Positions 10,928 to 11,000 of a DNA stretch of 20,704 nucleotides are shown here, piece by piece. The position numbers were made by a program, and so were the translations under genes. Every line of letters starts with the position of its first letter. Position 1 is the first letter of the stretch. Where the stretch lies: IMG/VR virus record IMGVR_UViG_3300024262_000310. One strand, given 5' to 3'. The notes under the pieces were generated by a model, which saw nothing but the letters and a program-made list of their open reading frames with translations, was not told the origin of the DNA and ran no database searches. The DNA comes from a virus.

Positions 10928-11000
10928 CGTCCGATGTCGGGCTCGAACCGACGACCTCCGGGTCTAGAATCCTGCGCTCTGCCAACTGAGCTAATCGGAC
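10928..11000 (-). tRNA. tRNA with a CUA anticodon loop (UUCUAGA), a candidate amber-suppressor tRNA
   Basis: Hand-folded: perfect 7-bp acceptor (GTCCGAT/ATCGGAC), D-arm GCTC-AGTTGGCA-GAGC, T-arm GTCGG-TTCGAGC-CCGAC, 5-nt variable loop. The anticodon stem pairs only 3 of 5 (CAGGA/CCCGG). The loop has U33 and R37 with CUA at 34-36. Confidence 0.65.

Follow-up and report, generated by a model that had tools for sequence, protein, structure and literature searches.

We analyzed a 20,704-nucleotide (nt) stretch of viral DNA (IMG/VR record IMGVR_UViG_3300024262_000310; the whole stretch is called the window below) that carries a transfer RNA (tRNA) gene with a CUA anticodon. We consider it likely that this tRNA is a functional phage amber suppressor and that its dedicated target is a TAG codon interrupting the 5′ end of pth2, a peptidyl-tRNA hydrolase gene of the same operon. 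That the tRNA decodes this particular codon we infer from gene order, codon conservation, and co-occurrence. The decisive feature was absent from the preliminary description of this DNA: a PTH2 gene sits in an apparently noncoding gap, on the strand of the tRNA and with its end 586 nt upstream of it; one conserved open reading frame (ORF129) lies between the two. The features of the window are collected in Table 1.

The gap (positions 11416-11957) is matched over 255 nt, at 68% DNA identity, by LR756500.1, and its translation reads M-K-D-V-F-G-TAG-I-N-Q-K-L-I-V-I-T-R-R-D-L-S-P-G-Y-Q-A-V-Q-S-A-H-A-A... The ORF that follows the TAG matches the Pfam family PTH2 (PF01981; E = 8.7e-11; 42.5 bits, with a cut-off of 23; match spanning positions 2-112 of the 115 in the profile), and its best sequence matches in the Protein Data Bank (PDB) are archaeal Pth2 (1rzw and 3erj), with human Bit1 also found. 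The ORF is thus predicted to encode a PTH2-family peptidyl-tRNA hydrolase. Its ratio of nonsynonymous to synonymous substitution rates (dN/dS) is 0.07 against L020 and 0.15 against L019 (L numbers denote individual related loci), values that point to strong purifying selection on pth2 in the lineage of the window. The ATG of pth2 lies 2 nt past the TAA of the preceding ORF, a coupling distance that indicates an operon context; a scan of positions 10500-12700 for sigma-70 promoters and terminators found no more than shuffled sequence gives.

Between the TAG and codon 70 of pth2 there is no ATG, GTG, or TTG, codon 70 being the first canonical start, and it is for this reason that ORF lists and public gene calls leave a gap here. 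Public protein sets hold Pth2 in faulty forms, either cut to 89-99 amino acids (aa) from an internal methionine or at full length with a glutamine at the TAG. The latter come from short contigs for which the gene caller assumed genetic code 15; in one example, P0008, the DNA reads ATG ACC TAG ATT. ORF129 has homologues in the same position, located by tblastn, in L020, L029, LR756500, LR756501 (L077), and LR756504 (L079), and is conserved out to a 735 kb phage. None of its 7 database homologues is annotated, it has no Pfam match, and its AlphaFold model (all-helical; predicted local distance difference test score 80) matched no fold in the PDB. ORF129 may be a third component of a tRNA-pth2 module.

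Table 1. Coordinates of features in the 20,704-nt window.
Feature	Positions	Strand	Remarks
dCMP deaminase	149-646		Ends in TAG
ORF	3136-3393		Ends in TAG
Ro60/TROVE protein	4017-5729	minus	
GIY-YIG/NUMOD3 homing endonuclease	5762-6388	minus	Adjoins the Ro60 gene on its 5′ side (coding strand)
tRNA, anticodon CUA (amber suppressor type)	10928-11000	minus	ARAGORN and Rfam; CCA not encoded
ORF129	11027-11416	minus	Conserved; between pth2 and the tRNA
PTH2 peptidyl-tRNA hydrolase domain (predicted)	11583-11933	minus	116 codons; TAA at 11585-11583
Conserved in-frame TAG	11934-11936	minus	Proposed target codon of the tRNA
pth2 leader	11937-11954	minus	ATG (11954-11952), then K-D-V-F-G; from sequence and translation
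Upstream 66-aa ORF	11957-12157	minus	TAA stop at 11959-11957; conserved in L019, L020, and L021
Major-vault-protein (MVP) homologue, 833 aa	12585-15086	minus	Pfam MVP_shoulder (3e-28) and Vault_3; ends in TAG
57-aa ORF	15294-15467		Ends in TAG
ORF	16129-16353		Ends in TAG
GOLLD RNA	17334-17812	minus	Rfam RF02032; 157 bits; full length
tRNA-like insert within GOLLD	17670-17739	minus	45.5 bits on Rfam tRNA
Partial ORF at right end	TAG at 20574-20572		Ends in TAG

To collect relatives, we used the gene for the MVP homologue as a synteny anchor, which yielded 57 related loci (38-90% identity; IMG/VR and JGI metagenomes), one of them on a 323 kb contig. The MVP gene is also present in the "uncultured phage" genomes LR756500-LR756503 (462-735 kb), the largest of which are among those published as the Mahaphage clade (PMC7162821). 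On this basis we assign the window to a jumbo or huge phage lineage. The layout found in the window, an in-frame ATG followed by 1-8 codons and a TAG at the same alignment position, recurs in all of the about 17 distinct homologues in the MVP-anchored loci, in complete LR756500.1 (462 kb), and in four huge phages of 634-735 kb (LR756501, LR745206, LR756504, and LR756502). In LR756501 the leader is MS-TAG, with an AGGAG Shine-Dalgarno sequence placed for the ATG that precedes the TAG. A profile-guided scan of IMG/VR located 80 loci on contigs of up to 501 kb and 23 to 64% guanine-plus-cytosine (GC) content, and a TAG leader was present in 46 of the 63 distinct loci (23-61% GC). A scan of bacterial genomes with a single protein gave one match, L168 (DASVUV010000089.1; 104 kb; 29% GC), which has the order MT-TAG-pth2 with a CUA tRNA just upstream. 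The contig was assigned to an Allosphingosinicella metagenome-assembled genome, but its composition and the module itself look phage-like, and the assignment is probably a binning error.

Altogether 65 distinct leader-bearing homologues were collected. In each, the TAG is preceded in frame by an ATG or GTG, most often at a distance of 2-4 codons, and the commonest leader consists of two codons (MK, MT, or MS). The stop at the leader position is TAG in all 65 and never TAA or TGA, even though over 80% of the stops in these genomes are TAA. The base that follows it is A in 48 homologues, G in 16, C in 1, and U in none, so that 64 of 65 have a purine there. In Escherichia coli, a 3′ purine is linked to efficient amber suppression. 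The leader TAG thus combines the marks of a readthrough site: a fixed and conserved stop, a downstream coding sequence under apparent purifying selection, and a favorable 3′ context. A clustering test over all loci singled out pth2 as the only gene family with a conserved leader TAG, while TAA and TGA controls returned only shadows of the MVP gene. Among the TAG-bounded ORFs of LR756500, leaders were enriched about 2-fold (18/99 versus 63/695, p = 0.012); the other candidates in that genome were rejected, and pth2 is the only convincing target there, because each of the others has a methionine start shortly past its TAG.

Six homologues have further in-frame TAGs inside the PTH2 domain, at three independent positions: one in L095, one in L108, and one shared by L116, L077 (LR756501), L129, and L135. 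Judging by the alignment, these codons must be translated if the PTH2 domain is to be made at all. In the remaining homologues these positions are occupied mainly by polar or charged residues (Q, E, K, T, S, N), and our guess for the inserted amino acid, which is no firmer than that, is a polar residue such as glutamine, lysine, or glutamate. Two further observations concern the leader region. L009 (the same as L057) has two tandem leader-TAG starts, at 4201 and 4948; the first, MT-TAG-INHKLIIITRRDLHPGYQAV..., is an N-terminal fragment of pth2 fused to an unrelated 244-codon ORF and looks like the outcome of an insertion into the 5′ end of the gene or of its duplication. A conserved (G)RATATATAA element occurs 15-30 nt upstream of the leader ATG in L010, L017, L019, L029, L036, L056, L167, and others; it is reminiscent of T4-type late promoters (TATAAATA) and is absent from the window, in which pth2 directly adjoins the ORF before it.

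The TAG leader and the CUA tRNA are closely linked. In every related locus of sufficient length a CUA tRNA lies 1-4 kb downstream of the MVP gene, and at all MVP-anchored loci with enough downstream sequence it follows pth2, on the same strand, after 569-1203 nt. LR756500.1 has 782 nt between the two, and LR756501, which carries two tandem copies of the tRNA, has 2.1 kb. For a test of co-occurrence we considered 63 distinct IMG/VR loci, each with at least 2.5 kb of downstream sequence. Loci with a TAG leader had a CUA tRNA within 3 kb downstream in 39 cases and none in 7, compared with 3 and 14, respectively, for loci that lack the leader (Fisher odds ratio 26, p = 1.4e-6, with the kinship of the loci ignored). 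In the TAG-leader loci the tRNA stands 148-2600 nt downstream, always on the same strand. Not every phage Pth2 gene belongs to such a module, because Pth2-like genes without a TAG leader and without an adjacent CUA tRNA occur in XacN1 (ORF364 and ORF295), Lak-B1, and Aeromonas phage avDM6.

The same arrangement is seen in cultured mycobacteriophages. In Mycobacterium phage Alice, gp150 is annotated as a peptidyl-tRNA hydrolase and is followed 250 nt on by gp151, annotated as "tRNA-suppressor (cta)"; the annotated GTG start of gp150 is directly preceded, in frame, by ATG TAG. Myrna reads GTG TAG GTG, and a CUA tRNA annotated as tRNA-Ser lies 148 nt downstream. We note that for this gene, gp86 (L083 863-934), ARAGORN reads a CUA anticodon and a reduced D arm, and that it is likely a misannotated suppressor.

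The tRNA of the window has been recovered by two programs in the same register. ARAGORN places it at 10927-11000(-) with the anticodon cta at position 34, and its label "tRNA-Pyl" rests on the anticodon alone; the Rfam model RF00005 scores 54.8 bits (gathering score 29; E = 1.6e-9) at 10928-11000(-). Neither the covariance model nor ARAGORN gave a different register or a pseudogene call, and the CUA anticodon loop named in the preliminary description is confirmed. So are its readings of the arms, which we repeated from the sequence: the acceptor stem pairs at 7 of 7 positions, the D stem at 4 of 4 (GCUC/GAGC), and the T stem at 5 of 5, while the anticodon stem pairs at only 3 of 5 (C27-G43, A28xG42, G29-C41, G30-C40, A31xC39) beneath the loop UUCUAGA, with U33, CUA at 34-36, and G37. 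The elongator features are all canonical (a 7-bp acceptor, G18G19, T54-T55-C56, and a 7-nt anticodon loop with U33). When 18 distinct homologues were aligned, CUA and U33 proved invariant (T33, C34, T35, and A36 in 18-20 sequences), 95.8% of stem cells were paired, and compensatory changes were present in 19 of 21 pairs. None of 500 shuffles reached the observed values, and controls with a slid register all collapsed. On this comparative evidence we regard the tRNA as real and under selection.

A decaying, nonworking tRNA copy, with pth2 silent or expressed in some other way, would account for the poorly paired anticodon stem, for a single-sequence minimum-energy fold in which the anticodon arm does not form, and for the A28xG42 mismatch, which is confined to the subclade of the window, L019, and L020 (L037 has U28-G42). 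We give this explanation very little weight. The only systematically unpaired position of the family is 31-39, mismatched in 10 of 18 homologues (A-C, C-A, or C-C) and also in the mycobacteriophage CUA tRNAs as read from their sequences, and the weak stem is therefore in part a family trait; by this comparison, the 31-39 mismatch is not decay. The anticodon arm is identical in the window, L019, and L020, whose MVP proteins are 89-90% identical, while the T stem and the discriminator base differ among them. L037 has a G37 loop too, as does tRNA a, one of the pair carried by LR756501, the 735 kb phage. An anticodon arm that is kept while other positions of the tRNA change, together with a recurring G37 loop, argues against a pseudogene; moreover, the pth2 genes of the subclade keep both the TAG and the low dN/dS values given above.

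Comparisons of the tRNA body pointed to no single isotype. Similarity to co-resident tRNAs gave inconsistent results, with best matches of the Thr, Glu, Met, and Phe types at 0.65-0.77 identity, and in BLAST comparisons with annotated phage tRNAs the body matched tRNA-Lys, -Ala, and -Thr with no isotype call. As discriminator base, L019 and L020 have A73, whereas the window has G73. As a separate observation, tRNAs with a UUA anticodon (ochre-suppressor type) occur in two relatives: in L055 (1792-1865), which lacks pth2, such a tRNA takes the place downstream of MVP that the CUA tRNA has in relatives, and in L085 (Lak-B1; 2347-2419) one lies about 600 nt upstream of the pth2-like gene without a TAG leader.

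The CUA tRNA might also not be primarily a decoder, serving instead as a substrate or partner of Pth2 or as a decoy against a host anticodon nuclease, with the conserved UAG interacting with it for regulation. Such a role would fit the constant linkage of the tRNA to an enzyme that acts on tRNA, a neighborhood rich in tRNA and ribonucleoprotein (RNP) genes (Ro60, GOLLD RNA, and tRNA arrays), and the unusual features of the anticodon arm. We nevertheless judge it extremely improbable, since the TAGs inside the PTH2 domain require decoding, the tRNA has every canonical elongator feature, and no positive evidence for such a role was found.

The question of the genetic code bears directly on what a suppressor could be for. 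The preliminary description stated that the genome also uses TAG as a stop, naming the dCMP deaminase, the MVP gene, the 57-aa ORF, and the terminal partial ORF. All four end in TAG, and two more ORFs do so, for a total of 6 in the window. The MVP TAG falls, in alignment, where about 45 homologues have their C-terminal TAA, the deaminase TAG likewise coincides with the TAA of its homologues, and because of this agreement we take TAG to be a genuine terminator in this lineage. The short readthrough tails that had been described are also present (MVP: TAG-N-S-E-TAA; deaminase: TAG-K-S-C-G-TAA), but their interpretation as a sign of recoding does not hold. A second stop this close is at chance level: about 30-38% of long ORFs in related DNA have a stop at most 4 codons on, and the distance to a backup TAA or TGA does not differ between TAG-ending and other genes (Mann-Whitney p = 0.86 in LR756500.1 and p = 0.59 in 14 related loci).

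As the contig of the window could be extended by only about 4.4 kb, which did not reach structural genes, we used the complete relative LR756500.1 (462 kb, assembled from ten 50 kb pieces) in place of the full genome. LR756500.1 has 24% GC, 27 genes for tRNAs or transfer-messenger RNA (tmRNA), and a syntenic CUA tRNA at c[110652,110720]. Standard-code ORFs of at least 100 codons cover 85.6% of this genome. Reading through TAG adds 1.4% (to 87.0%), less than the 2.0% gained in the TGA control (to 87.6%). ORFs of at least 150 codons end in TAA in 303 cases, TGA in 41, and TAG in 20; only 2 ORF pairs merge across TAG, both of them adjacent genes, versus 21 across TGA. In LR756500.1 no gene besides pth2 requires TAG decoding. 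We also searched the loci for in-frame TAGs spanned by homology, with 12 aligned residues needed on each side of the TAG. All hits were rejected, being shadows that the conserved MVP gene casts in other frames or on the opposite strand, six-frame ORFs of high GC (L052, L053, and L063), or a gene-overlapped upstream extension (L020 at 16416). The pth2 TAG, at codon 7, was missed because of the 12-residue requirement. Over about 650 kb of related loci, no other gene family has a conserved in-frame TAG.

These results bear on a block-wise recoding of TAG (genetic code 15), present or under way, in which the tRNA would serve late, structural, or lysis genes outside the window. In phages, suppressor tRNAs show a strong association with recoding, and they also occur in some relatives of recoded phages that keep the standard code (bioRxiv 10.1101/2021.08.26.457843); moreover, the window is only about 20 kb of an auxiliary region whose own late genes lie outside it, and TAG is a minority stop. 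Against this stand the coverage and ORF-merging figures of LR756500.1, the confinement of conserved in-frame TAGs to a single gene family, and the MVP and deaminase TAGs placed exactly at the TAA ends of homologues, and we think recoding very unlikely. A code 15 assignment was rejected because LR756500.1 gains less coding density from TAG than from the TGA control and lacks the many TAG-interrupted genes, structural and lysis genes above all, that this code would entail, and because TAG still terminates genes of the window. The earlier suggestion of partial or late TAG recoding is therefore not supported by LR756500.1; what survives of it is that in-frame TAG use exists, limited to one dedicated target, pth2, and without a change of code. 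By these measures the lineage appears to use the standard code, with TAG an ordinary and fairly rare stop outside pth2.

Several observations weigh against a dedicated suppressor of the pth2 TAG. The tRNA pairs only 3 of 5 anticodon-stem positions and has a G37 after A36, which is unusual for a tRNA that reads a codon starting with U. Since 5-15% of genes end in TAG and have no extra backup stops, an efficient suppressor would be costly. ARAGORN and Rfam found no CUA tRNA within 4 kb on either side of pth2 in LR745206, LR756502, or LR756504, seven of the TAG-leader IMG/VR loci have none within 3 kb downstream, and shared descent was left out of the co-occurrence statistic. In TAG-leader phages that have no CUA tRNA nearby, it may be located elsewhere in the genome. 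In 34 of 65 leaders the TAG is followed by ATT, a codon rarely used as a start. Finally, the GTG that follows the TAG in Alice and Myrna has a GGAGG or GAAGG box 7 nt upstream, which makes direct initiation at this GTG plausible, with no need for the TAG to be read; these two phages are the weakest part of the case.

The last two points would be explained if the leader were a mini-ORF ended by release factor 1 (RF1), with initiation or reinitiation at the following ATT or GTG codon yielding Pth2 and the CUA tRNA an orphan or general suppressor, used for instance in readthrough of host TAGs or rescue of amber mutations. Also in keeping with this is that the authors of the XacN1 genome found no targets for its two CUA tRNAs (PMC5852040), and that neither XacN1 Pth2 gene has a TAG. 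We find it an unlikely account, if one to be taken seriously. In 25 of 65 leaders the codon after the TAG cannot be a start (GTA, GTT, AAC, ACA, ACT, AGC, CTT, AAA, or GGC). An ordinary stop would mostly be TAA, yet the leader position holds TAG without exception. The domain-internal TAGs of six homologues cannot be bypassed by reinitiation, and the tight linkage of TAG leader and CUA tRNA is left unexplained. We therefore return to a dedicated suppressor and its target as the preferred interpretation.

We propose the following mechanism for pth2 expression. Ribosomes would start at the ATG at 11954, translate a few codons, and reach the UAG, where either RF1 would terminate translation and release a tiny peptide or the CUA tRNA would be accepted and Pth2 made. 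The output of Pth2 would be set by the balance between mature, charged suppressor and RF1. With tRNA and target in one gene array, the arrangement would behave as a coherent feed-forward gate, with a delay, a threshold, and no leaky expression. The purine at +4 would favor readthrough at the pth2 site, while the 31-39 mismatch may hold general suppression low enough for TAG to stay a stop. Work in E. coli has established that the lower anticodon stem tunes suppressor efficiency. We further infer a regulatory purpose for the gate. Tentatively, and with more doubt than confidence, we suggest that it is a natural translational switch in which an early UAG weighs host RF1 against the phage suppressor, so that Pth2 would be made once the supply of phage tRNA is established or when termination or ribosome-rescue capacity falls, and that this switch has been kept from actinophages of 65% GC to 735 kb phages of 24% GC. 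The published view of PTH2 in jumbo phages is that it aids ribosome rescue after tRNA damage (PMC7824862).

The tRNA is of a known kind, a phage CUA suppressor; the module of tRNA and target would represent a new form of programmed stop-codon use. Like phages with genetic code 15 (crAss-like phages, Lak phages, and the clades of Borges et al., bioRxiv 10.1101/2021.08.26.457843), the phages described here combine a phage-encoded tRNA(CUA) with in-frame TAG in phage genes, and for recoded phages it has been proposed that the in-frame stop ties expression to the phage-made tRNA (bioRxiv 10.1101/2021.08.26.457843). Unlike them, the present lineage has a standard code in which TAG ends 5-15% of genes; the in-frame TAG is found in one gene family at a fixed 5′ position, with the tRNA linked to the gene, and the "code change module" of release factor and aminoacyl-tRNA synthetase was not seen.

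The pyrrolysine system resembles the module in having a dedicated CUA tRNA close to a few in-frame UAG genes while UAG remains a stop elsewhere. tRNAPyl has a 6-bp anticodon stem, a 3-nt variable loop, and a small D loop without G18G19. In the window tRNA, by contrast, the D loop is 8 nt long and includes G18G19, the variable loop has 5 nt, and the T loop reads TTCGAGC, and a pyrrolysine system was rejected because the shape of the tRNA does not fit. No pylS or pylBCD was found among the 16 window ORFs scanned against Pfam, and unlike in pyrrolysine genes, the UAG of pth2 lies in an N-terminal leader and not at a catalytic residue. The gene prfB, which encodes release factor 2, is likewise a translation-factor gene with an early in-frame stop (UGA in prfB) whose output reports on termination efficiency. 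prfB escapes its stop by a +1 frameshift and senses its own product, whereas the escape at pth2 would be by suppressor tRNA, and Pth2 is not the factor that reads the stop.

Other parallels concern circuit logic and orphan suppressors. An engineered "leak dampener" in E. coli is a coherent feed-forward loop in which one input drives both a suppressor tRNA and an amber-interrupted gene, so that leaky expression is suppressed (PMC7969014). The tRNA-pth2 pair, which is natural and conserved in phages, would share this logic. Jumbo phage XacN1 and Alice also have CUA tRNAs without sign of recoding and with targets unknown to the authors; in the case of XacN1, the authors could not identify them (PMC5852040). 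Unlike that account, ours offers a specific candidate target; the adjacency of pth2 and tRNA and the TAG are shared by cluster C mycobacteriophages and not by XacN1.

The bar minigenes of phage lambda (AUG AUA stop) owe their toxicity to peptidyl-tRNA drop-off under limiting host Pth. They resemble the leader in being two- or three-codon ORFs with a stop and a functional link to peptidyl-tRNA hydrolase, and differ from it in that the leader mini-ORF is in frame with the hydrolase gene and fused to it through the TAG. One homologue (L009) reads ATG ATA TAG. In full-text searches we came across no account of a pth2 gene that is interrupted by an amber codon and paired with a suppressor tRNA; an earlier description elsewhere is possible.

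The rest of the window is consistent in orientation, nearly all genes being on the minus strand, and it also encodes a radical-SAM protein; it has 4 tRNAs in total. Its DNA is also present on a 43 kb ENA contig and on a JGI contig. The homing endonuclease next to the Ro60 gene has similar counterparts in the same spot in relatives (L004 18714-19325). In the tRNA-like insert within GOLLD, the acceptor stem is poorly paired and an anticodon-loop-like sequence reads CUUAGGA (UAG, Leu type); ARAGORN did not call this insert. MVP, Ro60/TROVE, GOLLD, and tRNA arrays form a conserved island of RNP-type genes in huge phages. Genes for tmRNA are present in relatives (LR756500.1 c[94511,94921]; L058 3569-3960) and likewise in cluster C mycobacteriophages, so that suppressor tRNA, Pth2, and tmRNA travel together in both groups.

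Phage suppressor tRNAs are usually read as markers of a code change, and their purpose in phages with a standard code is an open question. The module described here offers a concrete, conserved, and testable target: the gene of one translation-quality-control enzyme, whose synthesis apparently depends on the neighboring tRNA. It also exposes a systematic annotation error, in that pth2 is missed (as in the gap of the window at 11416-11957), shortened to 89-99 aa, or silently translated with glutamine at the TAG. Since the module occurs in cultured mycobacteriophages (Alice and other Bxz1-like phages, and Myrna), experiments are feasible now. Stop-codon use confined to one viral gene may be an evolutionary stepping stone to full recoding, and the arrangement points to a tRNA-based circuit of natural origin, with feed-forward or threshold behavior. 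If the proposed switch is real, it would explain the "orphan" amber suppressor tRNAs of standard-code phages that have a TAG-pth2 leader, those of XacN1 not among them, and it would be a viral counterpart of the single-gene use of stop codons seen in prfB and in the pyrrolysine system.

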